Below are positions 4,443 through 29,205 of a stretch of DNA of 64,000 nt, in pieces. The notes under the pieces are model-generated. The model ran no database searches, had not been told where the DNA came from, and worked only from the letters and a program-made list of their open reading frames with translations. The position numbers were made by a program, and so were the translations under genes. The DNA is from an uncultured bacterium (GTDB lineage: Bacteria > Verrucomicrobiota > Kiritimatiellia > RFP12 > UBA1067). How positions within the stretch are numbered: position 1 is the first letter of the stretch; each line of letters begins with the position of its first letter. The stretch lies in NCBI GenBank assembly GCA_902761035.1, contig CACWIW010000015.1, positions 1,586 to 65,585 of the forward strand. The letters run 5' to 3'.

Positions 4443-4446
4443 CACG

Positions 4447-7400: not shown

Positions 7401-7866
7401 GCCTGTCGCAAAAGGCAAAGTCTTGCAGGTATATGCGCTATGGACATACGTAGGGGTGTACCAAGTCGCGGCTGCAAAGACCGAGGACGGAGGGAATGTC
7501 TCCGGGGAATCTAATCAGGTCCAATCTGAACCAACGCAAACAGCGACACAGCAGGTGGTTGCAGATGGGGCGGGGCACTCGGCTGTCGCGGCCGGATGCG
7601 TGGCCTTGGCGGGTGCGCCAGCCGCCGACGAGGATAGTCTAACCTATCTGTACGGCGCACTCGAGGATGGAACTGGGCAGTATTGGCTGTGCCTCTGGGA
7701 CCTGTCCGATGCGACGACCGGACTTCTGCGTGTCGTCATAGAGGACGGCGAGGCGCTCACGACGACGTGGTGCGACGTCGATAGGGTCGGCGAGATGCTG
7801 CTCCTCTCGACGGAGGATGGTGACGTCGCCGTCATCAGCTCAGACGGGACGGCGCGTCTGCTGTAG
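4447..7866 (+). CDS. BspA-type leucine-rich-repeat surface protein with three Listeria-Bacteroides repeats
   Basis: ATG 4447 lies 4 nt after the upstream stop. The N-terminal hydrophobic segment is SLAIGIFAAAVLLLHQAAYG. Many LRR_5-like units follow (V.IP..V..IG..AF..C..L..V), then flg_new repeats at ~6690-7440 and a unique acidic C-terminal ~140 aa. A terminator follows the gene. Confidence 0.9.
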   Translation: MKKTVHVPESCASNSGGTFKGARPVQGKGARRQSIWASFKSLAIGIFAAAVLLLHQAAYGVVVTDKTGMWRYELVGMNATLVGIVKNASGYITIPAKVDGYRVVVLGESLFEDCAYITGVSIPYGVREIGNYAFCNCSSLQEVILPYGVSSLGHQVFLNCFGLTEITLPATLESIGLAPFGLTGIKKFKVDSQNQFYAVKDNLLCDKKGKVVVACPNALDATTVTVPSGVEEIGDGAFYGCDRLSRVTLPASVKTIGHYAFRWCTDLQSIELTSGLKTIGDFAFEFCSGLSKVTIPSGVTKIGDGAFENCTGLTSVSIPGSVVEIGSGVFYECNPALFDLKTIPNLRLVDGWIVGPQKDELPGNLVLDKGRGIAAFALCDTELTEITINVPYKGIGAGAFASCEDLLSVDVKSTLNFLGDGAFYGCTSLDTALLPPDVTYMGKEAFGGCWDLKNDKGFIIVNNVLYGYEADDPYPDKGYKVTIPSGVTRISKGAFYGDPWLLSVVVPDSVKTIDVGAFAECPELAKVTIGKGVTDITWFDISADTSWCDDWFYNGGGRKREPRSFCDCDKLGSVNISPENPMYKTVNSYVCDKAGGTLLYCPPNMLNVVTPKSVRNIAPGAFYRSSNIRGLSFEGSVTNISSFAFQECSHLETVELPVGLTSIGQYAFNWCGSIEYDSNGTLVTNGLKLIRIPHTVKSIGYAAFRGCIGLKKVQVAETIDEDVIDLGAAFLDFDVDDIEYYKLTYKIVFHRYDGSADTTETIEVNADETIRLTSLSRLGWARRGYDFKGWATSRAKADSGTIWKLDWAKVTNAIAIGKTLHIYAVWAVASDSYALYLVRNDGAGTWRTIGFKHGVSTAIPTIKALGWARRGYVFKGWSLTTADARNNKIWKADGEKIATAAAKGKTLTVYASWAIAPDYYAIQFNKNDGSGKWRSVGFKWGENTKLPTLDKGLGWDRSATGYAFVGWSTNPKGSIWKGDGAVVASPVAKGKVLQVYALWTYVGVYQVAAAKTEDGGNVSGESNQVQSEPTQTATQQVVADGAGHSAVAAGCVALAGAPAADEDSLTYLYGALEDGTGQYWLCLWDLSDATTGLLRVVIEDGEALTTTWCDVDRVGEMLLLSTEDGDVAVISSDGTARLL

Positions 7867-7965: not shown

Positions 7966-7995
7966 TTGACTTATGCCAAAAAATTATGGTATAAT
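7966..7995 (+). promoter_or_regulatory. Near-consensus sigma70-like promoter (extended -10) of the glycan export/assembly operon
   Basis: TTGACT (7966-7971), an 18-nt spacer, then TGgTATAAT (7987-7995). ATG 8003 lies 7 nt after the -10 element and there is no Shine-Dalgarno sequence between them. Confidence 0.55.
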
Positions 7996-8002
7996 TACAG
8001 CG

Positions 8003-8770
8003 ATGTTCAAGAAATTGAAGAGGCAGCGATTCCTGTTCGAGGAACTAGTAAAACGCGATTTCAAGAAAAAGTACAAACGTACTATCCTTGGGATGGGGTG
8101 GAGCATGCTTTCACCCCTTTTAATGCTTCTCGTGATGAAGATCGTGTTTGAGCAGTTTTTCGGGCGCACGATGAATCACTACACCACTTACCTGTTTTGC
8201 GGGCTTCTCACGTTCAACTGGTTTTCTGAATCAACTAATGGCGGAATGAGGTGCCTGTTCGGCAATGCGAGCATTTTCACGAAGGTGAATGTGCCTAAAT
8301 ATATGTTCCTTTTTTCGATAAACGTCCAGGTCCTGTTGAACTTCGCGTTGACGCTTCTGGTTTTCTTCGTGTTCTGCGCGATAGACCACGTGCAGTTCAC
8401 ATGGCGGTTCATTTGCCTTGCCTATCCCATCATGACCATGTTGCTGTTCAATTTGGGCATTGGCATGGTTCTTTCCGCGCTTTTCATCTTTTTCCGTGAC
8501 ATCGACTATCTATGGTCGGTCGCGCTTCAGCTTCTCATGTACGGTTCGGCCATCTTCTATACCGTGGGCAATTTCCCGCCGAATGTCCATTTGGTCTTTT
8601 CCTTGAACCCCGTCTATCGACACATAGCATATATCCGCGAGATTGTCCTGAAGGGGACCGTCCCCTCGCTTGAAACGCACTTGACGCTTTTGGGGTTCGC
8701 CGTCGCCGCTTTTCTTGCCGGCGCGTTTATGTACAAACACTACAACACGAAGTTCCTTTACTATGTCTAA
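8003..8770 (+). CDS. wzm: ABC-2 type polysaccharide/teichoic-acid exporter permease (Wzm/TagG-like)
   Basis: A multi-TM protein with the N-terminal motif ELVKRDFKKKYKRTILGMGWSMLSPLL, typical of ABC-2 permeases. The ORF opens at ATG 7973, but that codon lies inside the promoter spacer, so ATG 8003 is preferred. The stop overlaps the next gene's start (ATGTCTAA). Confidence 0.85.
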   Translation: MFKKLKRQRFLFEELVKRDFKKKYKRTILGMGWSMLSPLLMLLVMKIVFEQFFGRTMNHYTTYLFCGLLTFNWFSESTNGGMRCLFGNASIFTKVNVPKYMFLFSINVQVLLNFALTLLVFFVFCAIDHVQFTWRFICLAYPIMTMLLFNLGIGMVLSALFIFFRDIDYLWSVALQLLMYGSAIFYTVGNFPPNVHLVFSLNPVYRHIAYIREIVLKGTVPSLETHLTLLGFAVAAFLAGAFMYKHYNTKFLYYV

Positions 8771-10217
8771 TGCGAAGGTCATGCTCTCCTGCCAGAAAGT
8801 CTCCATCCTCTACCAGGTTGGGGACTTCAAGAACATTGGCCTGAAGGAGTGGGTGATGCGCCGTCTTACCGGCCGGTACGAGGTCATTAACTTCTGGGCA
8901 GACAAGGACGTGACCTTCTCGCTTAACAAGGGGGACATGTTGGGGATAATCGGCCTCAACGGGGCTGGAAAGTCAACGTTGCTCAAAGCGGTTTCGGGCA
9001 TAATGGAGCCTACGTCGGGCACGATTTCGCGCAGGGGAAACGTGGTGGCGCTTTTGGAGCTTGCGAGTGGATTTGACGGTGATCTCAATGTGAAGGAAAA
9101 TGCGTATCTGCGCGGGGCCATGCTCGGCTACACGCGCGCGTTCATGGACAAGACGTATCCCGACATAATCGAATTCGCGGAGCTGAAGGAGTTTGAGGAT
9201 CGTCCGTTCAAGCAGCTTTCGTCTGGCATGAAGTCGCGCCTGGCTTTTGCAATCGCCTCGCTTGTCAAGCCCGAGATACTGATTCTGGACGAGGTGCTTG
9301 CCGTGGGCGACGGGGCATTCCGCAAGAAGAGCGAGGCAAAGATGCGCGAGATCATCAAAGGAGGCGCGACCACGATCCTTGTTTCGCATTCCACATCGCA
9401 AGTGCGTTCGCTTTGCAATAAGGTTCTGTGGTTGGACAAGGGGCGTCAAGTCGTTTGCACGGACGATGTGGGAGGTGCTTGCGACTGTTATGACAAGTTT
9501 CTGCGCGGTGCTTCGCCTGCAGTCTATATCCCTCACGCACCGAAGGCTCGTATCGATATGCATGTGGCGGAGAACATAACTCCCCCTGTTGCCAAGTCGC
9601 AGGTGGCGACCACGCAGAGCCGTCCGAATGTCGCTGTTGGGACGGGCAAGGGGCCGGGGCAGAAAGCCAGCGTGCCCAGAACGCCGATCATGCCATTCCG
9701 CCGTGATGTCAATTTTGCGAAGCGAGTGACAGAGAGGAAGGGGACCGGAGAGATTAAGTATACGGCAGCAGATTTCTACGATCAGTTCGGGAGGCCGATT
9801 CGCGTGGCCAAGTGCGGGCAGCTTGTTCGCTTCGTCGTTTCGTTTTCAGTGGTAAAAGGAGTTCCTGCTGGAACCGTTGTTGGATTTGATTGCTGCGACC
9901 AATCTGGCAAGCAGTTGATCAGCCTGAATCTGCACACTTTTAGTTGTTCTCTGCCTGCTCTCAAAGCGGGTGCCAACCGGACGGTGGAATTCTCTATTCA
10001 CATCCCGCTTAACACGGGTAAGTATTCTTGGTCTGTGAACTTACGGCCCAATCCGGACAAACCCAATTTTTATGATTACTGCCATAATGCGGCGATATTG
10101 ACAGTTGTGAAAGGCAGCACGCGCTACTCCCAGTACCAGGGGGGGGCTTTTCTCGCATGTCCAGCCAGCATATCTTTTGTCGGAGAAGGACGCTCCAGCG
10201 TCTTGTTCAGGAAATGA
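8763..10217 (+). CDS. wzt: Polysaccharide ABC exporter ATP-binding protein with extra C-terminal domain (Wzt/TagH-like)
   Basis: The ORF opens at 8715; ATG 8763 is preferred because it is coupled to the permease stop. Motifs: Walker A GLNGAGKST, signature LSSGMKSRL, Walker B ILILDEVLAVGD, H-loop VSHS. A low-complexity linker and a beta-rich ~170-aa C-terminal domain (~9700-10214) follow. Confidence 0.9.
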   Translation: MSNAKVMLSCQKVSILYQVGDFKNIGLKEWVMRRLTGRYEVINFWADKDVTFSLNKGDMLGIIGLNGAGKSTLLKAVSGIMEPTSGTISRRGNVVALLELASGFDGDLNVKENAYLRGAMLGYTRAFMDKTYPDIIEFAELKEFEDRPFKQLSSGMKSRLAFAIASLVKPEILILDEVLAVGDGAFRKKSEAKMREIIKGGATTILVSHSTSQVRSLCNKVLWLDKGRQVVCTDDVGGACDCYDKFLRGASPAVYIPHAPKARIDMHVAENITPPVAKSQVATTQSRPNVAVGTGKGPGQKASVPRTPIMPFRRDVNFAKRVTERKGTGEIKYTAADFYDQFGRPIRVAKCGQLVRFVVSFSVVKGVPAGTVVGFDCCDQSGKQLISLNLHTFSCSLPALKAGANRTVEFSIHIPLNTGKYSWSVNLRPNPDKPNFYDYCHNAAILTVVKGSTRYSQYQGGAFLACPASISFVGEGRSSVLFRK

Positions 10218-10284
10218 ATAGTTGCATCTACAATCCATCGGCAGCCTTAGAAATGAGGCTTCGCAAAGAATAAGGAGGAGATTT

Positions 10285-13200
10285 ATGTGTAAGGTGTCCA
10301 TCGTAGTTCCTGTCTATAATCGCGAGAGCGTGCTTCGGACGTGTCTTGAGTCGCTTGTCGGCCAGACTCTGAAGGAGATTGAGATTATATGCATTGACGA
10401 CGGATCGTCGGATGGATCGGGGGTCGTCCTTGACGAATTTGCCGCACGCGATTCGCGCATCCGTGTGATCAAAAAGGAGAACGGGGGCGCAGCCTCTGCG
10501 AAAAACGCGGGACTTGCCGCCGTGAGCGGCAAGTATGTGGTGTTTGTTGAACCAGATGACTGGTGCGACTTAGACATGATGAGGGGATTGTATGAGACTG
10601 CGGAGCGGACTGGGGCGGACGTGACCATCTGCGGGTTCAAGACATACGACGACCAGATCGGAAAGTTTGTTTCGGAGAAAACGTATCCGCACGACATTGC
10701 TGGACGGGAGCAGCCCTTTTCTGCAAAGAGCATTGCCGATAACGCATTCATCTGGTTTGGACAGGGGCTTGGGGACAAGTTTATCAACAGTGCCTATCTT
10801 TCGCAGTTGGGGGTGAAGTTCCTTGATCTCCCTCATGCGGAGGATTTGTGTGTTGTCGAAACGTGCATCGCCTGTGCGGACAAAATCTCCGTGGCGAATT
10901 TCCCGTACTACAACTACAGAATTCGGAGCAAAAGCTCGCAAAATCAGAATGACAAGTCACCGCTTGCGTTTTGCGAGGGATATGTGGAGCTTCGTCACCA
11001 GCTTGAGAAGCGCGGCTTATGGGATTTGTTTAGGTCAAGTTTCCGCCAGTCCGTCCTTGCTTCTATCGTATATGCTCTGAAGTCTCTTTCGGATGATAAA
11101 GCCCTTCGGCGCGTCTATCGCGAAGTTCGCGAGAAGTGGGTGTCTAGATTCGGGCTAAACCACCTGGAAAAATCAGAGTTGAAGGTTCCGGAGCATCTGT
11201 ATGATTCGCTTAATATCATCCGCGAAAACTCCGATCCTGTCAGGTTCATGTTGCACGCGCTACGTGTCGATGCCGAGTCGGCCAATAAGGTCGGTGCTGA
11301 ACTGCGGTCTGCGAAAGCCCAGGCTTTTGACATTGGAGACAGCGCTCCCCTCGTTTCTGTAATCATTGCCGTCAGGAACGGACAGGATACAATCGAGAAT
11401 TGCGTGCGGTCGGTTCTTGGACAGACGCTTCGCCAGATCGAAGTGATCTGCGTTGACGACGGGTCGACGGACGGGACTGTTTCGGCACTTAATTCACTAG
11501 CCATTGGCGATGTGCGCTTGCGAGTGATTCGGCAGGGGAAGCTTGGTGTCAGCGCTGCCCGGAATGCGGGGCTTGAGGCCGCTTGCGGAAAATATGTCGC
11601 CTTTCTGGATGCCGATGACGAGTACGTTGCGACCCATCTTTGGAATCTCGTTGCAAAGGCGGAAGCCGGGATGTGTGATGTCGTTCAGGCCGCACACTGC
11701 GAGGTCGTCGACGGGCAGGTGTCTCGCACTTCCCTGCCGCACGAGAAATGCACGGCGACCGACCTCCGGTCATGTCCGCAAATTGTTCGTTTTCAGACGA
11801 AGTACATCTGGGACAAGCTTTTCCGCCGTGAAATGCTAGAGCGAAACAACATCCGCTTTGCACCATACGGATATCACGAAGACCACCTGTTCCTTTTCGA
11901 CGTTGATCTTGTCGCCAGGAATTTTGCAACAGTGCCCGAGGTGGGATATCGTTATTCGAAGTCCAGCGTGGGTGCGGCAACGCGCTCTTACGATGAGCGG
12001 CTTCTTGACTGCCCCAAAGCGTATTGGGACATCTGCCGCAAGGCGCGTGAAGCCGGGCTGTTCGATGAACTTGCCGATTCTATTTGGGCCAACTGCTCCA
12101 TGAGTTATGCATGGCGGATATGGGCGTTCCCAAAATACGACAACCCCGATCTCAAGAGCAAAATCGTCAACGGGTGGTATGAGTTCTTCCAGGCGACTTT
12201 CCCGCACTGGCAGAAGGACATGCATCTCCTCGGCTACCCGGTCGCCCTTCCCCCGCATGATTACCGAAAGGTTTTGTTGCTTGGCGGCACGGGCGCACTT
12301 GGTGCGCACCTTGCGGAAATCCTCGCGGAGCAGGGTTGCCAAGTCTACGTGACGAGCCGCAGCGAGCATGACGATGTGCCGGGCATCTGCTATCTGAAGG
12401 GTGATGCACAGGACATAGGCTTCTTCCGTAAATTGACGCAGTCTAGATGGGATGCAATCGTTGATTTCATGGTTTATGGGCCAATCGCGTTCCAGCAACG
12501 CCTGACCAAGTTCCTGGAGATGACGGACCAGTACGTTTTTCTCAGTTCCTCCCGCGTATATGCCGACGCCCATGGTCAGTTGATAACGGAAAACTCGCCG
12601 CGGCTTCTGGACACGGTGACTGACGACGCCTATCTCAAGACGAGCGAATATGCGTTGGCGAAGGCGCGTGCAGAGAATGCGCTGAGGGCCAGCGGAAGTA
12701 CGAATTGGACAATTATACGCCCTTATGTGACGTTTAGCGAGCAGCGCCTTCAGTTGGGTACGCTCGAGAAGGAACACTGGCTAAAGAGAGTCCTTGAAGG
12801 CAAGCCCATCGTCTTTTCGGACGATGTAGCCGCCAGGACTACGACTTTGACGTATGGCCGCGATGTCGCGCGAGGGATGGCGTCGCTTATTGGACGAAAA
12901 GAAGCGCTTGGCGAGTGTTTCCATATCACGTCCTCCAAAAGTCTGGTCTGGAGGGACGTGCTTGAAATTTACGTCAGGGTCATCCGCGAGGTTACGGGGC
13001 GGGCCTGCCCTGTGGTAATGACGAGAAATTCCTGTCAGCTAAATACGCCGGGCAAATACCAAGTCTTGTATGACCGTCTCTTTGACCGCAGGTTTGACAA
13101 TACGAAGATCGGGAGGTTCATCGACGTATCCACGTTCCGTGATCCCGTCGAGGCATTGGAGAGCTGCCTGAGGGCGTTTTTGGCCGCTCCCAAGTTCCTC

Positions 13201-16200
13201 AAGGTCAATGAATTACTTGAATCTCTGCATGACAAGGCCTGTGGCGCACTGCCTACGGTTTCTGGAGGCTATACCGTTGAACGTAACGTGCAGATTCTCA
13301 TTGCGGCCTTGAAAGCACACGGCATAAGGCAGGTGATTGCATCTCCAGGCACTACGAACCTGACGTTTGTTGCCAGCATACAGCACGATTCATTTTTCAC
13401 CGTCAAGTCAGCTCCAGACGAACGTTCCGCGGCGTACATGGCCTGTGGCTGGGCTGCGGAGTCGGGGGCTCCGGTGGTCATCAGCTGCACTGGAGCCACT
13501 GCGAGCCGCAACTACCTGCCAGGCCTCACTGAGGCGTATTACCGCAAATTGCCGATCCTGGCCGTTACGGGGACGTTATACGAGCCAAGGGGCGGACATC
13601 TCACTCCGCAGTTTATTGTACGCACGCAGGCACCTACGGACACAGTCCGCCTTCAGGTGTCGATGCCGTTCGTGCGCGACAAGAACGACGAATGGGCAAA
13701 TACGGTTGCCGCCAATCATGCGATACTTGAGTTGGTACGGCATGGTGGCGGCCCTGTACACATCAATCTCGAAACGATGCACAGCCGTGACTATTCCGTG
13801 GCACGGCTTCCACCGGTTCGCGTAATTCACCGTCACTTCCCCGGTGAAGGGATGCCGCCGATTCCAGACGGTCGTGTTGCCGTGTTCATCGGCGCCCATG
13901 TGCCTTGGTCTGAGGCGCTGACCCTGGAGGTGGAGAAGTTCTCCGAGAAGTTCGACGCGCCGGTGTTTTGCGACCACGGCTCGAACTATCGCGGGAAAGG
14001 CGAGATGAACTTCACGCTTGCCTGCTACCAGCAGAGCGCGACATACAAGGAATACCTGCCTGACGTTCTCATCCACATCGGCGAAGTCTCGGCAGACTAT
14101 CCTTCGTTGAAAATCGTAGGAATGTCGAAAGTCTGGCGAGTGAGTGCCGATGGCGAGATCCGCGACCAGTTCCGCAGGCTTGTTGATGTGTTCGAGATGG
14201 ACGAACTGTCTTTTTTCCGGTTTTACAATAATGATTCGGAGAGTTCCCGCGCTTCTGGATATCGTACGGCTTGTGAACGAAAGCTCGCAAGCCTTCGCTC
14301 TCGGTTCCCGGATGTCCCGTTCTCGAACATCTGGGTAGCAAGTGTGTCGTCTCCCAAGGTTCCGGAAGGGGCATTCCTCCACCTAGGCATACTTAATTCA
14401 TTCAGGGCATGGAGCCTGTTCCAGTTGCCGAAGACGGTTCTAGCATCCTGCAATGCGGGCGGCTTCGGAATAGACGGTTGCCTTTCGACTTTGCTTGGCG
14501 CTTCATTCGCCCATCCCGACCGGATTCATTTTGCGGTGCTTGGAGACCTCGCTTTCTTCTACGATCTTAACTCGCTGGGGAATCGTCATGTAGGGGCCAA
14601 TCTGCGTATTCTGCTTATCAACAACGGCAAGGGAATGGAATTCCGTAATTTTAACCATCCTGCCTATCAATTCGGAAAGGCGGCCGACGAGTTTGTGGCA
14701 GCTGGCGGACACTACGGGAACAAGTCCCGTGAACTCGTGCGCCACTATGCGCAAGACTTGGGTTTTGACTATCTTTCCGCAGCTGACAAGCATGAATACA
14801 TGAAGGTGGCGGAGTCGTTCTGGTCGCCAGTGAAGCGGTCGAAGCCGCTCATACTCGAGGTTTTTACCGATGAGGAGTGCGAAAACGGGGCGCTTGAAAC
14901 TGTCACGTTGATGGAGGGAGCACCACCGCCCCCCAAACCCGTGGCGGCGCCTCCGCCCGCCAAACCCGCGTCGGCGCCTCCGCCCCCCAAAAAACCTGCG
15001 TCGGCGCCTCCGCCCACCAAGCCCGCGCCCCCAGCCCCTAAGGCCGCCCCCGCAAAGGCCCCCGCCGCGAAGGCGGTGCAGCCTATTAAGGTGGAGAGGG
15101 CAACTGTGGCGTCTCGGAAAATCGCCATCTTGACCTTCCACTGTGCCTACAATTGCGGTGCGTATCTGCAGGGATGGGCTCTTCAGACAATTCTTCGGCG
15201 CATTGGCTTCGAACCAGAGTTTCCGGATTGCACGCGCGTTGGTTATTTCCCGCGTTTCGGGGATGTCTGGTACAAGCAAAAGCCTAGCCCGGAGGCGGGC
15301 TGGTTCTCGCGTATGCTCTTCCGTCTTAAGACGGAGATTTGTGCCCTTGGACATGAGGATGTGAAACGGCATCGCTTTCGCATGTTTGCAAAGCATTGCC
15401 TCGCCATAAAGGTAATGAAACCTAAAGAAATCGAACGTCGATATCCGGCTGTAATAGTCGGCAGCGATCAAGTCTGGAACCCCGCCATAACGAGAAAAGA
15501 GACGGAATATTTCCGTACGACGATTTTCAAGAACCCGGCGCTGAAACGGTATTCCTACGCGATTAGCGTTGGCGATGCAATGCCAAAGAAGGAGAGCATC
15601 TCCTATTTGACGGCTGCGGCGAAGCTATTTGAGAACCTTTCGTTTAGAGAGAATCTATTGCCTCAGCTAGTGGATAAACATGGTCGTCATCCGACCGTTG
15701 ACCTAGATCCGACGTTGTTGCTGTCGAAGGCAGACTTCAACCGTATTGCCTATCCCAAGCGTTTGGAACGGAAGCCGTATCTTCTTGTCTATTCGCTCAT
15801 GTACAACGAGAAGACGTGGAACGCTGCGCGGACAGTGGCTAAACGGCTGGGGCTCAAGCCAGTGTTCATTCTGGTCTATCAGTACGGTCACAGTCAGATG
15901 GTCGATCCCGATGGTGTGCAAATCTCTGTTTCGCCTGATCGTTTTCTTGCTTACATTCGTGACGCCGAGGTGGTGATTACATCGTCTTTCCATGGCACGG
16001 CATTTTCCCTCATCTATCAGAAGAAGTTCGCTACCCTGCCATTTGTTCATGGGAAGGTGTCGCTTCGCTGTCAGAAGCTTCTCAAGTCGGTACACGAGGA
16101 GATTCACCAGATCGACAACCCTGATGATATTGAGGCGATTACCGCCGCGCTTACTTACACTCCGAGGCCTGAGACCATGCAGGCGCTTTCCAGGCTTTCG

Positions 16201-16410
16201 AACATGACGATTCGCAAACTGCGCGCGACGCTGCCTAATGTCGATGGTGTGCCGCGTTCACCAGCGCGTCCTGTCTATAGTACGCTCACTTGGCCGTTCC
16301 ATAAGATGTGGGGCGGGATAAAGTGTATCAAAGAGAACGGCGTTGGCTACACAGTCAAGCATGCCTGGGGTAAGGTCCTCCGGTTTGCAGGCGTCAGAAG
16401 CCCGCTTTAA
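10285..16410 (+). CDS. Five-domain glycan assembly enzyme (2,041 aa): GT2 - GT2 - extended SDR - MenD-like ThDP enzyme - Pro-rich linker - polysaccharide pyruvyl transferase
   Basis: ATG 10285 follows AAGGAGGAG (10272-10280). GT2 #1: VSIVVPVYN..QTLKEIEIICIDDGSSDGS. GT2 #2 from ~11350: VSVIIAVRN..QTLRQIEVICVDDGSTDGT. SDR from ~12262: LLLGGTGALGAHL and YALAK. ThDP domain at ~13270-14900: DERSAAYMACG and GDLAFFYDLNSLG..LLINNGKG. Pyruvyltransferase at ~15115-16130: AILTFHCAYNCGAYLQ and ITSSFHGTAFS. Confidence 0.9.
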   Translation: MCKVSIVVPVYNRESVLRTCLESLVGQTLKEIEIICIDDGSSDGSGVVLDEFAARDSRIRVIKKENGGAASAKNAGLAAVSGKYVVFVEPDDWCDLDMMRGLYETAERTGADVTICGFKTYDDQIGKFVSEKTYPHDIAGREQPFSAKSIADNAFIWFGQGLGDKFINSAYLSQLGVKFLDLPHAEDLCVVETCIACADKISVANFPYYNYRIRSKSSQNQNDKSPLAFCEGYVELRHQLEKRGLWDLFRSSFRQSVLASIVYALKSLSDDKALRRVYREVREKWVSRFGLNHLEKSELKVPEHLYDSLNIIRENSDPVRFMLHALRVDAESANKVGAELRSAKAQAFDIGDSAPLVSVIIAVRNGQDTIENCVRSVLGQTLRQIEVICVDDGSTDGTVSALNSLAIGDVRLRVIRQGKLGVSAARNAGLEAACGKYVAFLDADDEYVATHLWNLVAKAEAGMCDVVQAAHCEVVDGQVSRTSLPHEKCTATDLRSCPQIVRFQTKYIWDKLFRREMLERNNIRFAPYGYHEDHLFLFDVDLVARNFATVPEVGYRYSKSSVGAATRSYDERLLDCPKAYWDICRKAREAGLFDELADSIWANCSMSYAWRIWAFPKYDNPDLKSKIVNGWYEFFQATFPHWQKDMHLLGYPVALPPHDYRKVLLLGGTGALGAHLAEILAEQGCQVYVTSRSEHDDVPGICYLKGDAQDIGFFRKLTQSRWDAIVDFMVYGPIAFQQRLTKFLEMTDQYVFLSSSRVYADAHGQLITENSPRLLDTVTDDAYLKTSEYALAKARAENALRASGSTNWTIIRPYVTFSEQRLQLGTLEKEHWLKRVLEGKPIVFSDDVAARTTTLTYGRDVARGMASLIGRKEALGECFHITSSKSLVWRDVLEIYVRVIREVTGRACPVVMTRNSCQLNTPGKYQVLYDRLFDRRFDNTKIGRFIDVSTFRDPVEALESCLRAFLAAPKFLKVNELLESLHDKACGALPTVSGGYTVERNVQILIAALKAHGIRQVIASPGTTNLTFVASIQHDSFFTVKSAPDERSAAYMACGWAAESGAPVVISCTGATASRNYLPGLTEAYYRKLPILAVTGTLYEPRGGHLTPQFIVRTQAPTDTVRLQVSMPFVRDKNDEWANTVAANHAILELVRHGGGPVHINLETMHSRDYSVARLPPVRVIHRHFPGEGMPPIPDGRVAVFIGAHVPWSEALTLEVEKFSEKFDAPVFCDHGSNYRGKGEMNFTLACYQQSATYKEYLPDVLIHIGEVSADYPSLKIVGMSKVWRVSADGEIRDQFRRLVDVFEMDELSFFRFYNNDSESSRASGYRTACERKLASLRSRFPDVPFSNIWVASVSSPKVPEGAFLHLGILNSFRAWSLFQLPKTVLASCNAGGFGIDGCLSTLLGASFAHPDRIHFAVLGDLAFFYDLNSLGNRHVGANLRILLINNGKGMEFRNFNHPAYQFGKAADEFVAAGGHYGNKSRELVRHYAQDLGFDYLSAADKHEYMKVAESFWSPVKRSKPLILEVFTDEECENGALETVTLMEGAPPPPKPVAAPPPAKPASAPPPPKKPASAPPPTKPAPPAPKAAPAKAPAAKAVQPIKVERATVASRKIAILTFHCAYNCGAYLQGWALQTILRRIGFEPEFPDCTRVGYFPRFGDVWYKQKPSPEAGWFSRMLFRLKTEICALGHEDVKRHRFRMFAKHCLAIKVMKPKEIERRYPAVIVGSDQVWNPAITRKETEYFRTTIFKNPALKRYSYAISVGDAMPKKESISYLTAAAKLFENLSFRENLLPQLVDKHGRHPTVDLDPTLLLSKADFNRIAYPKRLERKPYLLVYSLMYNEKTWNAARTVAKRLGLKPVFILVYQYGHSQMVDPDGVQISVSPDRFLAYIRDAEVVITSSFHGTAFSLIYQKKFATLPFVHGKVSLRCQKLLKSVHEEIHQIDNPDDIEAITAALTYTPRPETMQALSRLSNMTIRKLRATLPNVDGVPRSPARPVYSTLTWPFHKMWGGIKCIKENGVGYTVKHAWGKVLRFAGVRSPL
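14920..15075 (+). repeat. Pro/Ala/Lys-rich interdomain linker encoded by three imperfect 27-30-nt tandem units
   Basis: The protein reads APPPPKPVAAPPPAKPASAPPPPKKPASAPPPTKPAPPAPKAAPAKAPAAKA. The unit GCGCCTCCGCCC..AA.CC.GCG recurs three times. The linker contains a C6A6 tract at 14983-14994. Confidence 0.8.
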
Positions 16411-16420
16411 TCAGCGGCCC

Positions 16421-17725
16421 ATGAAATTGTCGGTCATAATTCCGGCCTTTAATGCCGCCCAGTGGATAAAGGACGCCGTTGATTCGGTGTTGGTGCAGGA
16501 TTTTAGGGATTTTGAGCTTATTGTCGTTGATGACGGGTCTACGGATGAAACTTTAGCCATAATTGATCGGATTGCCGCATCGGATGGCAGGGTGTCCGTC
16601 ATCCATCAACGGAATGCGGGGCCCGGCGTTGCACGGAACGCAGGGCTCGACCATGCCAGTGGTGAATATGTGGCATTCGTTGATTCGGACGATAAGTTGG
16701 CATCGCCAAACGCGCTGTCGTCAATGATGCAAAGGGCTGTCGAGACCGGATGTGATGTGCTGCTGGCGCGCGCGCGCAAGATCGGTCTTCGAGGTGAGCT
16801 TGGAAATGAACTTGACTGGTGCCTGAGGAAAAACCTTATTCCAGCGCGGGATGTGTTCTCACCCGAAGAAGTCGGGGTCTCGTTGTTTTTTGTCGCCGGC
16901 CCGGTGCCTTGGGGAAAGCTCTATCGCCGCGAGTTCGTTAACGGCGAAAAGCTGCGATTCCCGCCATTGCCAAGATCCGAAGATTTCCCATTTGTTCAGA
17001 CGGCGATGGCATGTGCGGGGAAGATTGCGGTTTATGATGACATTGTGATTTTGCATAGAGTGGCGCGTGTCGATTCCCTTGAAAGCACGAAGGATGCGAC
17101 CCCCTTGATTTTTGCGGAAGCCGAAAGCATCTTTGCAAAAATGCTTGGCGAACGGGGGCTTTGGGAAAAATTCGCTTTGGCTGCAAAGGCGCGTGCCATG
17201 CTGAGGTTGGCTTATAACCTGACGGCGGTTCAATCCTTCGACGGTATCCGGAAGGTGTTCGCATTCGCGTATGAGGAACGAAAGAATTTGTGCATTGATG
17301 ATGTTGCCGACTCCTTCCGTGACTATGCTTTGGCGAAGAGGAATGTAGACGGTATTCTCGCACATGAATCTGCGGAAGCGTGGATGTACGCAAGAATGGT
17401 GGCTGCGGAAAAGAACTTACGGGCGAAGGTTGTGGAACTACGGAGGTACGACAGGGATCATAAGGCGCTGGCGGCGTTGAAGGCTGCTCAGGACGCATCA
17501 CTGGTTCAATCGCAGCGGGAGGTGTCGCGGCTCAAGCAAAAGGTCATGTCGCTGGAAGAGAAGTCGTTGGCGCTTGAATGTTCCGAGGCGTACCGCGTCG
17601 GAATGGCCGTCACATGGCCGGCGCGGAGGGCGTGGGGCGGCGTGAAGTGCCTGCGCGAGAACGGCTTGAAGTACACCATAGAACACGCCATTGGAAAGGT
17701 GTTTAGCAGACGCGGCAGGCAATGA
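16421..17725 (+). CDS. GT2 glycosyltransferase with C-terminal coiled coil and conserved tail
   Basis: ATG 16421 lies 10 nt after the upstream stop (the ORF opens at 16343). The GT2 head reads MKLSVIIPAFN...DFELIVVDDGSTDET. A C-terminal heptad-rich segment (~17390-17570) is followed by SEAYRVGMAVTWPARRAWGGVKCLRENGLKYTIEHAIGKV. Confidence 0.9.
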   Translation: MKLSVIIPAFNAAQWIKDAVDSVLVQDFRDFELIVVDDGSTDETLAIIDRIAASDGRVSVIHQRNAGPGVARNAGLDHASGEYVAFVDSDDKLASPNALSSMMQRAVETGCDVLLARARKIGLRGELGNELDWCLRKNLIPARDVFSPEEVGVSLFFVAGPVPWGKLYRREFVNGEKLRFPPLPRSEDFPFVQTAMACAGKIAVYDDIVILHRVARVDSLESTKDATPLIFAEAESIFAKMLGERGLWEKFALAAKARAMLRLAYNLTAVQSFDGIRKVFAFAYEERKNLCIDDVADSFRDYALAKRNVDGILAHESAEAWMYARMVAAEKNLRAKVVELRRYDRDHKALAALKAAQDASLVQSQREVSRLKQKVMSLEEKSLALECSEAYRVGMAVTWPARRAWGGVKCLRENGLKYTIEHAIGKVFSRRGRQ

Positions 17726-17766
17726 GTTGCCCGTGTAAAACCCATAAAAAGGACAGGAGAGACGCT

Positions 17767-20700
17767 ATGCCCAAAATATCATTTGTCGTTCCCGTATGCA
17801 ACACCGCGCAGTTTCTGTCCGCGACGCTCGACAGCATCCTCGCGCAGACGTACAGAAACATCGAAGTCATCTGTTCCAACGACTGTTCGACAGACTCGTC
17901 ATCGCAGATGCTCGACGAGTATGCAAAGAAAGACTCCCGCGTCAAAGTAGTGACGGCCGAGAAAAACGGCGGGGTTTCGTGCGCGCGAAATCAGGGGTTG
18001 GAACATGTGACCGGCGAATACGTTTGGTTCTTTGATTCGGACAACCTCCTTCATCCCCAGGCGGCGGAGATCATGCTCCGCGCCTGTGAGGGCAACAAAG
18101 CCGATTTCGCCTATACGCCGGTCGAGCGCGTCCAAGAGGAGGCTGCGCTTGCCGATTGCGTCAAGCCTGTTGCCTGCACGGTGGAATGCATGGCCAGCCC
18201 GACCGATCCCTACAGATTGTACGGCAACGACTATGGGATGCAGCACATATTGGCGAAGGCGGAGCTTGTAAGGGATAACAGATTCGAGCGGGGGGTGACT
18301 TATGGCGAGGATGTCCTTTTTGTGTATCGATTCCTCATCAAGAACCCCAAAGGCGTGTATATCCACGAACCGCTTGTTTACTACCGCCAGAGGGAGTCTT
18401 TGGCCGTTCAAGGCCAGGGAGGTGTGCGCATACAAAGAAGTGTAGACCGCGTGGTAGAATGCCTCAAACCGCTTCTGATGCTTGACATGCCATCCGAGAC
18501 AAGGACGGTTTTGACACGATGGCTTAAAGCCAATAACGCTGGTAGCCTGCCGCAGCTGGAAAGCGAAAGCTCTTGCTACGCCGTCATGGCATCTGACGAT
18601 ATCCGGGCGAAATCGACATCCGGCGGCGTGTTCACCGTCTTGGCGGAGGATGTCATCGCGCACGGCGGTTGCGTGGCCGGCGCGGTCTATGCGAACGACT
18701 GGTCGGTTAAACACGAATTGGTCGAAACCGTTGAGGGCATAGCGGCCATGCGTGGCTCCAAATATGTTCGCGGCGTCATAGACAAGAACTTTCTTGCCCG
18801 TCTTGACGAGGCGGTCGCATTGGGGAGAACCGTGCTTTTCACCGGACTGCCGTGCCAGGTCGCCGCGATGCGTAAGCGTTACGGCAATCGACAGAACGTC
18901 ATTTTTCTGGATATCATCTGCCACGGCGCGCCGGATGCCAGGTTGTGGCGGAAGCGTGTGGAGGAGCTTTCGTCGGGAAGTAGGAGAATAACCGGCATCA
19001 ACTTCAGGGACAAGCGCAACGGATGGGGTGGATTGACGAGTACGTTCGCCGTGAACTATGACGACGGCTCCGAGTATGCAGTAGATCTTTACAAAGACCC
19101 TTACGGTGTGGCGTTCGGAATCGATCTGCTTCTTCCCGAAGAATGCACCCGCTGTCCGTTCTCTTGCGAAAAACGCGTAGGTGACATTACGATTGGCGAC
19201 TTCTGGGACTTGGCAAATAGTTCACTTAATGATCGCAAGGGCCTTTCATGCGTGGTCGTGAACACGCTAAGAGGCTTGGAATTGTTTGAGCGCGTCCGCA
19301 ATCGCTTTTGTCAAGCCCTGCCGTACCCTGTATCTTATGTTAAACAACCGAATTTCCACATGCCATCGCGACCGCATCCGTTCAGCAGGGAATTCCAGAA
19401 AGATGTCCTTGCTGGGATGCCGTTTGACGCGGCGGTAGCGAAGTACGCAGAGCACCCAAAAAGCGTCGCCGTGCTGAATTTCCATTGGGAACAGACGAAT
19501 TTCGGGGCGATACTCACGTCTTTTGCACTTTCACGGCATCTCACGGATATCGGGTGGCAGCCACAGAACATCGATTACTCCCCGCTGGATTCCGACCTCG
19601 CCGCCATGCGCGAAAATGTTGGTTTCGAGTCGTTCAGATACCGTCATCTGCCGCGGACGCGGAAAATTACGGACGGCAGATCGTTGTGGAATTATACGAA
19701 GAGGTTTAAGACGTTTATCGTCGGCAGCGATCAGGTCTGGTCTAAGAAATTGACCGAAGGCAAGGAAGATGCCTTCTACCTCTCTTTCGTCGGGCCTGGT
19801 AGGAGGCTGATTGCGGCTGCGGCGAGTTTTGGGATGGTACCGGCTGCCGAACGGGACGAGGAAGCTCTGACGGCGCGGCTCAGGGTCTTCAGTGCCATCA
19901 GCGTGCGGGAAATGCAAGACGCACAAACAGTCAGGAATCTTGTGGGTAAAGGCGAGTGCGTCCCGGATCCAGTATTTTGGGTCGATCGGTCGGTCTGGGA
20001 CGAGCTTGCCGACAAGGCGAAGCGCAAAACCGTTGGAAAGGTCGTCGTCTATAGCGTAAACATGTCGGAGACTGCGGGGATTCTGAAGTTTCTTGAGATG
20101 AGCGGCCTTACGACCCCGAAAAAGCCTGCAAGGATGCTTTCCAGTTCCATGAGCCCCGAGGAATGGCTCTCGGCCATCCGTGCAGCGAAGCTTGTTGTGA
20201 CCGATTCATTTCATGGCGCATGTTTCTCGGTTTTGTTCCACACGCCTTTCATCTGCATCCAAGCGGATGAAAACCGCTCTGCACGGCACCGCACGATGTT
20301 GGAGGGACTTGGCCTTTCGGGGCATCTTTTCAAAGATGGCGAGAGTGCCTTTCAGGCTTACAGCGTCGGGATGAACGTCGACTGGGCCAAGGTGGACGAT
20401 GGGATTGCGCAGTATCGCAGCAAGGGGCGGGATTTCATAGAGTCCGCCCTCGCGACAGATGACATGGCGTCCCCGGAAATGGCGGCAGCTTGGACGCAGC
20501 TTGAAGATTACCGCAAGGAGCACCCCTGTTTGTGGACTAGAGGCCAATCTGCAATGCGGTCTGCCATGATGGCAGACGCTAAGATTTGGGCGCAGCGATG
20601 TCGGTTCAAGGAGGAGCGCGACGCACTGCGCGTGCGGGTCGAGGAACAGAAGGCTAAAGAGGCTGCGCTGTGGGCGGAACGCAGCAAGTTCTTGGAGGAG

Positions 20701-22377
20701 CGCGACGCGCTGCGCGGGCGGGTCGAGGAACAGAAGGCGAAGGAGACCGCGCTGTGGGCGGAGCGCTGCAAGTTCTTGGAGGAACGCGACGCGCTGCGCG
20801 GGCGGGTCGAGGAACAGAAGGCAAAGGAGACCGCGCTGTGGGCGGAACGCAGCAAGTTCTTGGAGGAGCGCGACGCATTGCGCGAGCGGGTAGAGGAACA
20901 GAAGGCGAAGGAGACCGCTCTGTGGGCGGAACGCTGCAAGTTCTTGGAGGAGCGCGACGCATTGCGCGAGCGGGTAGAGGAACAGAAGGCGAAAGAGACC
21001 GCGCTGTGGGCTGAGCGCTGCAAGTTCTTGGAAGAGCGCGACGCACTGCGCGGGCGGGTCGAGGAGCAGAAGGCGAAAGAGACCGCGCTGTGGGCGGAGC
21101 GCTGCAAGTTCTTGGAAGAGCGCGACGCGCTGCGCGGGCGGGTCGAGGAACAGAAGGCGAAGGAGACCGTGCTGTGGGCGGAACGCTGCAAGTTCTTGGA
21201 GGAACGCGACGCACTGCGCGGACGGATCGAGGAGCAGAAGGCGAAAGAGGCTGCGCTGTGGGCGGAGCGCAGCAAGTTCTTGGAGGAGCGTGACGCGCTG
21301 CGCGGGCGGGTCGAGGAACAGAAGGCAAAGGAGACCGCTCTGTGGGCGGAACGCTGCAAGTTCTTGAAGGAACGCGACGCACTTCGCGGGCGGGTCGAGG
21401 AACAGAAGGCGAAGGAGACCGCTCTGTGGGCGGAACGCTGCAAGTTCTTGGAGGAACGCGACGCACTTCGTGGGCGGGCCGAGGAGCAGAAGGCGAAGGA
21501 GGCTGCACTGTGGGCGGAACGGTGCAAGTTCTTGGAGGAGCGTGACGCATTGCGCGGGCGGGTCGAGGAACAGAAGGCAAAGGAGACTTCGCTGTGGGCG
21601 GAACGCTGCAAGTTCTTGGAGGAGCGTGACGCATTGCGCGGGCGGGTTGAGGAGCAGAAGGCGAAGGAGGCCGCACTGTGGGCGGAACGGTGCAAGTTCT
21701 TGGAGGAGCGTGACGCATTGCGCGGTCGGGTCGAGGAGCAGAAGGCGAAGGAGGCCTCGCTGTGGGCGGAACGCTGCAAGTTCATGGAGGAACGTGACGC
21801 ATTGCGTGGACGGGTCGAGGAACAGAAGGCGAAGGAGACCGCGCTATGGGCGGAACGGTGCAAGTTCTTGGAGGAGCGTGACGCGCTGAGCGGTAGGGTC
21901 GAGGAGCAGAGGGCGAAGGAGGCCGCGCTGTGGGCTGAGCGCGGAAAAATCATGGCCCAGCGCGATGCGCTGCGCGAACGGAATGAGGCGCAGAAGGCGA
22001 AAGAGGCAAAACTGTGGGCTGAACGCGGCAAATTCAAGGACGAGCGCGATGCGCTACTCGAACGGATTGAGGTACAGAAGGTTAAGGAGTCCAAGCTCTG
22101 GGCTGATCGCTGCAAGTTCCTGGGTGAGCGCAACGAACTTCGAATGGTGGTTGCCGAGAAGGATGCGTCACTGGCTGCGGATGCCGGCTGGATAGCGGAA
22201 CTTTGCGACGCGCTTATGGTCGCCGAAAAAGAGGTGTCGGCCCTCCGGGAGTCCGCTTCCTATAAGTTGGGGCGTGCGCTCACCAAGCCGTTCCGTGCCA
22301 TCCGTGATAGGTTCAACCAAAAAACGGCAATTAGAAATGATATAAGCCACAAAGAACAGGATAAAACAGGAGAATGA
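17767..22377 (+). CDS. Multidomain enzyme: GT2 - FrhB-like (coenzyme F420 hydrogenase beta-type Fe-S/flavin) - polysaccharide pyruvyl transferase - 19 x 28-aa helical repeat stalk - conserved tail
   Basis: ATG 17767 (MPKISFVVPVCN) follows AGGAGA; ATG 17722, which overlaps the upstream stop, is an alternative start. GT2: QTYRNIEVICSNDCSTDSS. FrhB-like at ~18570-19330: STSGGVFTVLAE, LPCQVAAMRK, CTRCPFSC. Pyruvyltransferase at ~19460-20320: VAVLNFHWEQTNFGAIL and VTDSFHGACFS. Repeats occupy 20578-22173. The tail reads SASYKLGRALTKPFRAIRDRF. Confidence 0.9.
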   Translation: MPKISFVVPVCNTAQFLSATLDSILAQTYRNIEVICSNDCSTDSSSQMLDEYAKKDSRVKVVTAEKNGGVSCARNQGLEHVTGEYVWFFDSDNLLHPQAAEIMLRACEGNKADFAYTPVERVQEEAALADCVKPVACTVECMASPTDPYRLYGNDYGMQHILAKAELVRDNRFERGVTYGEDVLFVYRFLIKNPKGVYIHEPLVYYRQRESLAVQGQGGVRIQRSVDRVVECLKPLLMLDMPSETRTVLTRWLKANNAGSLPQLESESSCYAVMASDDIRAKSTSGGVFTVLAEDVIAHGGCVAGAVYANDWSVKHELVETVEGIAAMRGSKYVRGVIDKNFLARLDEAVALGRTVLFTGLPCQVAAMRKRYGNRQNVIFLDIICHGAPDARLWRKRVEELSSGSRRITGINFRDKRNGWGGLTSTFAVNYDDGSEYAVDLYKDPYGVAFGIDLLLPEECTRCPFSCEKRVGDITIGDFWDLANSSLNDRKGLSCVVVNTLRGLELFERVRNRFCQALPYPVSYVKQPNFHMPSRPHPFSREFQKDVLAGMPFDAAVAKYAEHPKSVAVLNFHWEQTNFGAILTSFALSRHLTDIGWQPQNIDYSPLDSDLAAMRENVGFESFRYRHLPRTRKITDGRSLWNYTKRFKTFIVGSDQVWSKKLTEGKEDAFYLSFVGPGRRLIAAAASFGMVPAAERDEEALTARLRVFSAISVREMQDAQTVRNLVGKGECVPDPVFWVDRSVWDELADKAKRKTVGKVVVYSVNMSETAGILKFLEMSGLTTPKKPARMLSSSMSPEEWLSAIRAAKLVVTDSFHGACFSVLFHTPFICIQADENRSARHRTMLEGLGLSGHLFKDGESAFQAYSVGMNVDWAKVDDGIAQYRSKGRDFIESALATDDMASPEMAAAWTQLEDYRKEHPCLWTRGQSAMRSAMMADAKIWAQRCRFKEERDALRVRVEEQKAKEAALWAERSKFLEERDALRGRVEEQKAKETALWAERCKFLEERDALRGRVEEQKAKETALWAERSKFLEERDALRERVEEQKAKETALWAERCKFLEERDALRERVEEQKAKETALWAERCKFLEERDALRGRVEEQKAKETALWAERCKFLEERDALRGRVEEQKAKETVLWAERCKFLEERDALRGRIEEQKAKEAALWAERSKFLEERDALRGRVEEQKAKETALWAERCKFLKERDALRGRVEEQKAKETALWAERCKFLEERDALRGRAEEQKAKEAALWAERCKFLEERDALRGRVEEQKAKETSLWAERCKFLEERDALRGRVEEQKAKEAALWAERCKFLEERDALRGRVEEQKAKEASLWAERCKFMEERDALRGRVEEQKAKETALWAERCKFLEERDALSGRVEEQRAKEAALWAERGKIMAQRDALRERNEAQKAKEAKLWAERGKFKDERDALLERIEVQKVKESKLWADRCKFLGERNELRMVVAEKDASLAADAGWIAELCDALMVAEKEVSALRESASYKLGRALTKPFRAIRDRFNQKTAIRNDISHKEQDKTGE
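20578..22173 (+). repeat. In-frame tandem repeat, 19 x 84 bp (28 aa), inside the CDS at 17767-22377
   Basis: The unit is x-x-LWAER(C/S)KFLEERDALRGRVEEQKAKE. Unit k starts at 20578+84(k-1) and there are no indels across all 19 copies. Copy 1 and copies 17-19 are degenerate; the central copies differ at only a few positions. Confidence 0.95.
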
Positions 22378-24072: not shown

Positions 24073-24123
24073 AATTGTTGAATGATGTGGAAGAATGAGT
24101 CTAAATTGCCTGAGGAGAAGCCA

Positions 24124-27449: not shown

Positions 27450-27462
27450 AAACAGGATTATT

Positions 27463-29191: not shown

Positions 29192-29205
29192 GAGATCATC
29201 TGGGG

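Follow-up and report, generated by a model that had tools for sequence, protein, structure and literature searches.

A 2,041-residue protein joins glycosyltransferase modules to a reductase, ThDP enzyme and pyruvyl transferase cassette in a Wzm/Wzt surface-glycan locus

What do three modifying enzymes do when they are joined to glycosyltransferases in a single polypeptide? This question is raised by a gene in a 64,000-nucleotide stretch of DNA from an uncultured bacterium of the Kiritimatiellia (contig CACWIW010000015.1 of assembly GCA_902761035.1, positions 1,586 to 65,585; hereafter the window). The gene, at 10285..16410 on the + strand, encodes a predicted product of 2,041 amino acids with two family 2 glycosyltransferase (GT2) modules, a short-chain dehydrogenase/reductase (SDR), a thiamine diphosphate (ThDP)-dependent enzyme and, beyond a linker, a polysaccharide pyruvyl transferase (PvT) followed by a tail. 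On the evidence presented here, the protein is best read as an enzyme that both adds sugars and equips them with one acidic substituent derived from phosphoenolpyruvate (PEP) and pyruvate.

The gene itself was supported by the reading frame, the ribosome-binding site, Pfam matches, identical products and alleles. The frame is open at 10222-16410, and a ribosome-binding site, AAGGAGGAG, at 10272-10280 is separated from the ATG at 10285 by a 4-nt spacer, so that the single uninterrupted frame with a strong ribosome-binding site described in a first-pass annotation of the sequence was borne out. In a Pfam scan with gathering-score cut-offs, all five catalytic modules of that annotation, including the SDR, ThDP and PvT assignments, scored above threshold in the order given there. 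A 6.1-kb frame with five profile-supported domains is far beyond chance. One might nevertheless suspect that ordinary single-domain genes were joined by a chimeric assembly, or that a frameshift or stop codon between them escaped notice, since a homologue in a metagenome-assembled genome (MAG; locus L009) falls into two reading frames near the SDR/ThDP junction. However, the same 2,041-residue product was called by gene callers in four other assemblies, and the identical 6.1-kb frame was found on at least seven contigs, the four places listed being four different samples with the same neighbours. The 90% cluster of the window protein contains four 2,041-residue alleles on 15 contigs, all full length and 99.6-99.8% identical (5-8 residue differences). 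In addition, seven diverged homologues on different contigs have the same continuous architecture. The independent assemblies, the full-length alleles and the diverged relatives thus rule out the chimera or missed stop against which the first-pass annotation had advised a check, and an artefact has hardly any probability left. The predicted fusion appears to be a genuine, full-length multi-enzyme protein.

The relationship among the three modifying domains was analyzed on the basis of their homologues outside the fusion. When the SDR-ThDP portion was searched exhaustively against 1.84 billion representative proteins, 1,108 matches were obtained at E <= 1e-30, most of which were standalone ThDP proteins (about 580 residues) or standalone SDRs (about 350-370 residues). 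A search with the ThDP domain likewise gave standalone proteins of about 580 residues that are 53-60% identical to it; every one of the 8,000 candidates scored had E <= 1e-5. In the databases this ThDP family is named 'thiamine pyrophosphate-binding protein' or, wrongly, MenD. We defined a cassette, which has no name, as a ThDP enzyme at least 50% identical to this family with a reductase and a PS_pyruv_trans protein adjacent or fused to it. The window protein itself falls within this definition, with 53-60% identity in the ThDP domain and contiguous domains.

When each GTDB species was represented by a single genome, a scan gave at least 80 loci, and the counts below refer to the 80 listed. 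The carriers belong to the Bacteroidota, Bacillota, Pseudomonadota, Verrucomicrobiota, Synergistota, spirochaetes (Treponema), SAR324, Anaerolineae and Nanosynbacter. The usual order is reductase, ThDP, PvT, often with a GT2 gene next. The reductase gene directly adjoins the ThDP gene in 61/80 loci; a PvT gene lies within 6 kb of the ThDP gene in 61/80 and directly adjoins it in 44/80; both partners are present in 55/80; and a GT2 gene immediately follows the PvT gene in 20/80. PvT neighbours were counted with a hidden Markov model built from a diverse alignment and were spot-checked by Pfam. The PvT counts are lower bounds, because four of ten re-tested neighbours in 'PvT-negative' loci proved to be divergent PS_pyruv_trans proteins in Pfam. 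In Runella zeae, for example, SDR (351 residues), ThDP (582), PvT (364) and GT2 (277) follow one another in the order of the fusion within a Wzx-type locus, the trio lying at 8937-12925 of locus L007. The megaplasmid pRUMAL01 of Ruminococcus albus 7 carries GT2, PvT, flippase, ThDP and SDR genes, of which RUMAL_RS18370, RUMAL_RS18380 and RUMAL_RS18385 form the trio. A gammaproteobacterial ThDP gene had no match by blastn in all complete E. coli genomes. The cassette is very common. It also appears to be undescribed, as our literature searches for it found no paper that describes it or gives the trio a function. In three loci without a recognizable PvT (L072, 3701-5044; L059, 7862-9082; L032, 3861-5084) a protein of about 410-450 residues with no Pfam match adjoins the ThDP-reductase pair; these proteins may be very divergent PvTs or an alternative transferase.

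Parts of the cassette are also joined to one another. We found SDR-ThDP fusions (P0242, 40% identical to the window protein, and P0291), a ThDP-PvT fusion (P0306) and PvT-ThDP fusions (P0287, P0315). In three further proteins an aldo/keto reductase with a 4Fe-4S domain is fused to the ThDP enzyme in either order (P0243, P0245, P0327). Pairs of cassette parts have been fused independently. The reductase position is not occupied by one protein family: it was filled by an extended SDR in 37 loci, by a classical adh_short SDR in 30 and by an aldo/keto reductase in one. Conserved adjacency, repeated pairwise fusion in both orders and replacement of the reductase by non-orthologous enzymes together indicate one pathway. 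The window protein is the most complete fusion of this cassette, which makes up its C-terminal two thirds, joined additionally to glycosyltransferases, and can be regarded as a 'Rosetta stone' which suggests that the SDR, ThDP and PvT enzymes work together.

It is also conceivable that unrelated modules were fused merely for co-expression, with the SDR making a nucleoside diphosphate (NDP)-sugar precursor, the ThDP domain belonging to some other metabolism and the PvT forming a ketal. The domain-level annotations, taken alone, permit this. The order and adjacency of the trio, however, are conserved across many groups, its members have repeatedly been fused in pairs, the SDR is replaced by non-homologous reductases, and genes of the ThDP family lie within polysaccharide loci and not in men operons. 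We therefore consider such an assembly of unrelated modules improbable. The first-pass annotation had likewise taken the three domains as separate activities for precursor synthesis and decoration; they are instead one pre-existing, widespread cassette. Whether the SDR, ThDP and PvT domains act in sequence on one substituent, and do not perform three unrelated modifications, is a point on which the comparison of sequences leaves us about evenly divided.

What, then, would each domain contribute? The Epimerase/extended SDR profile (PF01370) matched residues 663-873 with 42.5 bits (cut-off 20.9), and the domain, also supported by its invariant columns, standalone homologues and weak profile hits in the PDB, spans residues 655-990 (12247..13254, +). 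The GGTGALG sequence, S754/S755 and Y789-x3-K793 are invariant in eight fusions and 12 cassette SDRs and correspond to the GxxGxxG motif and the Ser...YxxxK residues of extended SDRs. Standalone homologues of about 350-370 residues are 44-54% identical to the domain. The best solved matches in a PDB profile search were NDP-sugar SDRs of the dehydratase or epimerase type, and these were weak (E ~1e-6). In NDP-sugar 4,6-dehydratases the catalytic Ser/Thr is followed by an Asp-Glu pair that serves as acid and base (TDEVYG-type motif). The corresponding sequence is SSSRVYA here and SSARVYA in the cassette consensus, with no Asp-Glu, and a 4,6-dehydratase function was rejected on this motif. The role of a sugar-precursor enzyme assigned earlier to the SDR also found no support, as a classical SDR or an aldo/keto reductase can occupy the same position. 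This interchangeability speaks for an enzyme that reduces a carbonyl arising from the ThDP step and against one that makes an NDP-sugar precursor.

The ThDP domain (residues 991-1540; 13255..14904, +) was assigned from Pfam, NCBIfam, a PDB search and an AlphaFold2 (AF2) model compared with Foldseek. TPP_enzyme_N (PF02776) matched residues 1003-1097 (59.9 bits, cut-off 26.8), and the NCBIfam menD model (TIGR00173) aligned over 1002-1407, which indicates a complete enzyme with three domains and about 550 residues. The cofactor-activating Glu1046 and the metal/diphosphate motif, GDL (1420-1422)...NN (1446-1447), are invariant; the domain thus has the pyrimidine-binding (PYR) domain with its Glu and the pyrophosphate-binding (PP) domain with the GD(G/L)-x24-27-NN motif that characterize the ThDP decarboxylase/carboligase superfamily. 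Its closest solved relative by sequence is MenD (7tin, E 1.3e-23, about 450 residues), the ThDP-dependent Stetter-type carboligase known as SEPHCHC synthase. The AF2 model (predicted local distance difference test score, pLDDT, 82) gave only MenD structures among its top 50 Foldseek hits (E 1e-24 to 1e-20). Acetohydroxyacid synthase (AHAS), by comparison, matched only the N-terminal approximately 100 residues.

The three-domain layout, the activating Glu, the GDL...NN motif and one Arg are shared with MenD, whereas the score, the other substrate residues and the gene context differ. The domain scored 146 bits against the TIGR00173 equivalog cut-off of 244.2. Mutagenesis of Bacillus subtilis MenD (BsMenD) has tied Arg32 and Arg106 to isochorismate and Arg428 to 2-oxoglutarate, with Arg409 assigned to both substrates (PMC2914249). 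In an alignment to solved MenDs, matched by motif because residue numbers differ between entries, Arg32 in SPGSRS is replaced in the ThDP family by SPGTTN (T/N at the position), Arg106 in DRP by TLY (L), and Arg428 in NRGA(N/S)GIDG by CNAGGFGIDG (A), while the equivalent of Arg409 (NS..R) is kept as NSFR. The neighbours of the ThDP family in the loci examined are flippases, glycosyltransferases, reductases and PvTs, the last two typically beside it in polysaccharide loci, and men operons were absent from these loci. A MenD function was rejected on the score, the substrate Arg residues and the gene context. Since the substrate Arg residues are replaced, we regard the domain as derived from MenD with another donor and another acceptor. 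The sequence suggests a donor that needs no pocket for a distal carboxylate, probably pyruvate.

The PvT domain (residues 1608-1985; 15106..16239, +) was defined by PF04230, alignment and AF2/Foldseek. PS_pyruv_trans matched residues 1623-1916 (78.1 bits, cut-off 25.3) over positions 1-274 of 280, essentially the whole profile. The motifs GSDQVW, VRE, DPT and (D/S)SFHG are common to the window PvT, the cassette PvTs and the PvT of a neighbouring gene. No usable solved relative was found in the PDB by single-sequence and profile searches. The AF2 model (pLDDT 70) matched GT-B enzymes in Foldseek, and a GT-B-like fold is the expectation for the PS_pyruv_trans family. In its full-length Pfam match, predicted fold and glycan locus the domain resembles CsaB, WcaK, EpsO and Pvg1 of PF04230; its coupling with a ThDP enzyme and a reductase is not described for any characterized member. 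Between the ThDP and PvT domains, at about residues 1541-1607 (14905..15105, +), sequence, alignment and DNA repeats showed a flexible Pro/Ala/Lys-rich linker, as the first-pass annotation had noted. Its DNA contains imperfect 21-30-bp repeats at 14926-15051, and it is kept in shorter form in the relatives.

These properties can be combined into a scheme. The two GT2 domains would add sugars to a lipid-linked glycan at the cytoplasmic face. In a first step, the PvT would move the C3 unit of PEP onto a hydroxyl group of the just-added sugar to give an enolpyruvyl ether. In a second, the MenD-like ThDP domain would decarboxylate a small 2-oxo acid, probably pyruvate, and the resulting acyl-anion equivalent would undergo Stetter-type 1,4-addition to the =CH2 of the ether, giving a 2-O-linked 4-oxo acid (4-oxopentanoate). 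In a third, the SDR would reduce the new ketone to a 2-O-linked 2,4-dihydroxypentanoate-type acidic ether. The Pro-rich linker could let the PvT domain swing relative to the remainder. The interchangeability of the reductase fits a simple carbonyl reduction following the ThDP step, and the Stetter scheme fits the MenD ancestry, because MenD performs a Stetter-like conjugate addition (PMC2914249). Sugar ethers with stereoisomeric 2,4-dihydroxypentanoic acids occur in the O-antigen made by Providencia alcalifaciens O31, according to PMC10609480, which cites Shashkov et al. 2008. A biosynthetic assignment of such ethers was not found in the literature searched, and a literature search for the Providencia O31 gene cluster gave nothing usable. 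That the cassette is an unrecognized glycan-tailoring pathway in which a MenD-derived enzyme forms a Stetter C-C bond on a sugar enolpyruvyl ether and a reductase completes a 2,4-dihydroxypentanoate-type ether is therefore offered only as a tentative proposal.

The main rival to this proposal is a route to acyl-branched sugars like that of YerE/YerF. The SDR would oxidize a sugar hydroxyl to a ketone, or later reduce the side chain; the ThDP enzyme would attach an acyl anion, acetyl or longer, at the carbonyl of the keto-sugar and so form a C-branched sugar; and the PvT ketal would be independent. Such a route explains the ThDP-reductase pair and agrees with the loci that have this pair without a detectable PvT, as well as with the NDP-sugar dehydratase- and epimerase-type enzymes that are the best solved matches of the SDR. 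ThDP enzymes that make acyl-branched sugars of O-antigens and antibiotics are documented (PMC9306805; PMC4753412), and the window protein resembles YerE/YerF in having a ThDP carboligase and a ketoreductase in glycan or deoxysugar biosynthesis. The route leaves unexplained, however, the adjacency of PvT in at least 44/80 loci and at least three PvT-ThDP fusions in both orders. YerE-type enzymes are AHAS-like flavoproteins, whereas the ThDP domain groups with MenD and its match to AHAS is confined to the N-terminus. Classical SDRs and aldo/keto reductases in the reductase position would be unusual for oxidizing a glycan hydroxyl. Moreover, the 21-kb L005 contig, which carries a homologue of the fusion, has no keto-sugar-forming enzyme such as a 4,6-dehydratase. 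MenD-like character, lack of an associated keto-sugar-forming enzyme and tight linkage to PvT thus distinguish the cassette from YerE/YerF, and we consider the acyl-branched route unlikely.

Several points weigh against the Stetter proposal itself. The cassette enzymes are uncharacterized and the three steps are inferred. To our knowledge, characterized PS_pyruv_trans enzymes yield cyclic ketals and not stable enolpyruvyl ethers. Nor is an alpha-alkoxy acrylate a good Michael acceptor. Reports of 2,4-dihydroxypentanoate ethers concern few glycans although the cassette is so widespread; for most of its carriers, however, the glycan structure has not been solved. About one-fifth of the loci show no PvT within 6 kb, and the ThDP-reductase pair may sometimes work alone. 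Finally, the nearest solved relatives of the SDR, if weak ones, are NDP-sugar enzymes, which would fit a role at the sugar level.

The glycosyltransferase part of the protein was compared with its relatives. Glycos_transf_2 (PF00535) matched twice, best at residues 5-133 and second at about 357-446 (228.8 bits together, cut-off 23.3). Module a (residues 1-352; 10285..11340, +; PF00535, alignment, blastp) has the motifs DDGSSDG and EPDD, and module b (residues 353-654; 11341..12246, +; Pfam, alignment) has DDGSTDG and DADD, the latter two being invariant across the family; both modules therefore combine the profile score with a DxD-type acidic motif. Recent duplication as the source of the two modules was ruled out by their identity of 33% over 187 residues in blastp. 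The seven relatives (59-69% identity, 1,649-1,672 residues, separate contigs) are continuous GT2-SDR-ThDP-linker-PvT-tail proteins with invariant catalytic motifs in every domain, and one of them is named as a Kiritimatiellia MAG protein. They begin at about residue 353 of the window protein; all family members keep module b, and module a is absent from the seven. Module a is therefore an extra, lineage-specific element, and since another relative, P0269, has a different N-terminal module of about 367 residues ahead of GT2-SDR, the N-terminus of the family is modular. The earlier description of two GT2 domains thus holds for the window protein, whereas the core family keeps one.

The fusion is rare: the search for the same domain order that the first-pass annotation had recommended, made in 5.8 billion proteins, found only eight clusters with the Pfam set of the fusion, to which the MAG locus L009 can be added. 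Literature searches found no paper on such a fusion, in line with the first-pass annotation, whose author knew of no described enzyme of this kind. At L009 (3956-8988; uncultured Verrucomicrobia bacterium, CAMNBZ010000002.1) the homologue is 65% identical, has the same domain order and is split into GT2-SDR in 3956-5989 and ThDP-PvT-tail in a frame ending at 8988. The split is either a sequencing frameshift or a truly split variant.

In which pathway would the fusion work? Immediately upstream, both on the + strand and assigned by domain matches, are Wzm, an ABC-2 permease (7973-8770), and Wzt, an ABC ATPase with a Wzt_C carbohydrate-binding domain (8715-10217). The Wzm/Wzt-fusion arrangement is the same in L001-L004. 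The L005 homologue likewise comes after Wzm/Wzt. Its compact locus also contains RgpF, a GT2 and two GT8-GT2 proteins, and the Wzt encoded there has 307 residues and is without Wzt_C. Genes for glycosyltransferases and sugar modification span about 30 kb downstream of the fusion. The locus is therefore an ABC-transporter-dependent (Wzm/Wzt) surface-glycan pathway. In such pathways the entire polymer is built and decorated in the cytoplasm. WbbB and WbdA/WbdD are known multidomain glycosyltransferase and modifying enzymes next to Wzm/Wzt, and the fusion resembles them in lying beside Wzm/Wzt with at least two glycosyltransferase modules per chain and in combining glycosyltransferase and modifying functions in a large polypeptide; Wzt_C and a long coiled coil are further common features. 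It differs in that the SDR-ThDP-PvT trio replaces the kinase/methyltransferase or the 3-deoxy-D-manno-oct-2-ulosonic acid (Kdo) transferase and that the coiled coil of the window is in a neighbouring protein. No sequence relationship beyond GT2 was found or tested.

This coiled coil belongs to a protein of 1,551 residues (17722..22377, +; Pfam and repeat analysis), with GT2, FrhB-like and PvT parts. In its gene an 84-bp repeat occurs 18.2 times at 20610-22139 (87% matches without indels), each copy encoding a 28-residue coiled-coil unit, ALWAERCKFLEERDALRGRVEEQKAKET; the resulting coiled coil of about 500 residues is followed by SASYKLGRALTKPFR. Other assemblies break the gene at this repeat. 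The coiled coil is reminiscent of the chain-length rulers of WbdD and WbbB, which use coiled coils as molecular rulers. The 1,551-residue protein is a likely partner of the fusion and may act in the same pathway to set chain length or to terminate chains. At 17722-20280, PS_pyruv_trans is fused to an FrhB/FdhB-like (flavin / 4Fe-4S) reductase. Such a pairing of PvT with a reductase might provide lactyl ethers by a route like that of MurA/MurB.

In keeping with the logic of WbdD and WbbB, the product of SDR, ThDP and PvT might be a cap at the non-reducing end, which ends polymerization and is read by Wzt_C, so that the fusion would be polymerase and terminator in one. The Wzt_C domain of the window Wzt, the presence of glycosyltransferase and modifying modules on one polypeptide and the 18 x 28-residue ruler-type coiled coil of the neighbour agree with this idea. 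The cassette is also found, however, in Wzx-flippase loci, where repeat units and not chain ends are decorated, and a cap is for this reason not its general role. In addition, the Wzt of the homologous locus L005 has no Wzt_C, and the neighbouring coiled-coil protein, with a PvT of its own, is a better candidate for the terminator. We therefore judge the cap to be rather doubtful, while it can coexist with the reading that one acidic substituent is built on the glycan.

The fusion links three very common genes that carry generic or wrong names in the records examined: 'thiamine pyrophosphate-binding protein' (often MenD), 'NAD-dependent epimerase/dehydratase' and 'polysaccharide pyruvyl transferase'. 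In bacteria from gut, rumen, sea and soil they lie together in loci for capsules and O-antigens. As multidomain glycosyltransferase-modifying enzymes beside Wzm/Wzt were already known, what is new here is that the modifying part is a reductase-ThDP-PvT pathway. If the trio builds one substituent, a common decoration of surface glycans becomes directly testable in cultured carriers, among them Ruminococcus albus 7, Shewanella hanedai JCM 20706, Bacteroides intestinalis, Stutzerimonas xanthomarina DSM 18231 and Proteiniphilum acetatigenes DSM 18083, and records that misname the ThDP family MenD can be corrected. If the Stetter reaction on a glycan is true, it would be a rare reaction type for carbohydrate biochemistry and a new biocatalyst or natural Stetterase family. 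The scheme would then also be the first biosynthetic route to 'non-sugar acid' ethers, PF04230 enzymes could release enolpyruvyl ethers as pathway intermediates, and the neighbouring FrhB-PvT fusion would be the lactyl-ether analogue.

The protein ends in a basic and aromatic tail, TWPFHKMWGGIKCIKENGVGYTVKHAWGKVLRFAGVRSPL (16240..16407, +; alignment, profile, AF2), the last 46 residues of which had pLDDT values below 50 in the AF2 model of the PvT domain with tail. The next gene (16343..17725, +; domain match, tail profile) encodes a GT2 of 460 residues, taken as the longest frame, in which a coiled coil is followed by a tail, SEAYRVGMAVTWPARRAWGGVKCLRENGLKYTIEHAIGKV. A profile from the last 48 residues of the family matched this C-terminus with E 8.5e-17 and, more weakly, that of the GT2 at 36203-37258 with E 9e-4, in agreement with the tail sharing and its weaker form that had been noted at first. 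The tail is thus shared at the locus as claimed, but kindred motifs are not peculiar to it: in a scan of 394 proteins, variants were found at the ends of, and between, glycosyltransferase modules in unrelated multi-GT2 proteins. Pfam scans of the window proteins found no family for the motif. The tail, which the next GT2 has in common with the fusion, probably serves as a membrane anchor or as a docking element that brings these enzymes together in an assembly.

The motif reads roughly S-x-x-Y-R-x-G-x-x-x-T-W-(L)-P-R-K-x-x-G-G-x-x-C-x-x-E-x-G-x-x-Y-T-x-K and often follows a coiled coil. It was seen in the window at 16240-16407, 17590-17722 and 37190-37258 and in the proteins P0037, P0056, P0057, P0071, P0073, P0083 and P0084, the last with four copies. 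A large homologue search with a 44-residue tail profile matched only five frames of 41-55 residues on metagenome contigs (P0390-P0394). These are almost pure tail motif, e.g. MFVTWPARKAWGGVKCLRENGIKYTVKHAAGKVLRLFGSTCKW, and are probably gene ends severed by contig breaks or frameshifts.

Further downstream, on the same strand, are a GT2, a GT2 with a CDP-glycerol-type phosphotransferase domain and a PMT_2-like membrane protein, followed up to about 41.1 kb by more GT2 genes, an ATP-grasp enzyme, an SDR, DegT aminotransferases and GT4 genes. Two DegT-family genes are adjacent (34035-35078 and 35113-36246); the first, of 347 residues, matches only positions 39-202 of the 360 in the profile and may be a divergent or truncated aminotransferase. 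The G+C content is 0.46-0.49 at 24000-34000 and 0.59-0.63 at 40000-64000, with 0.53-0.56 in the fusion gene. The drop in the middle of the locus points to a mosaic of glycan genes that were exchanged horizontally.

The locus is flanked by large genes for surface proteins at 1482-7866 and 52961-55738. Two flanking proteins are Peptidase_C10 enzymes with a Spi inhibitor prodomain, and others carry BspA-type leucine-rich repeat and Listeria-Bacteroides repeat domains. A PATR repeat is present in the protein at 47364-49811. These flanks fit a host-associated organism of the Verrucomicrobiota/Kiritimatiellia type, the surface of which is probably shaped in an animal gut by this unusually fusion-rich ABC-transporter glycan pathway.

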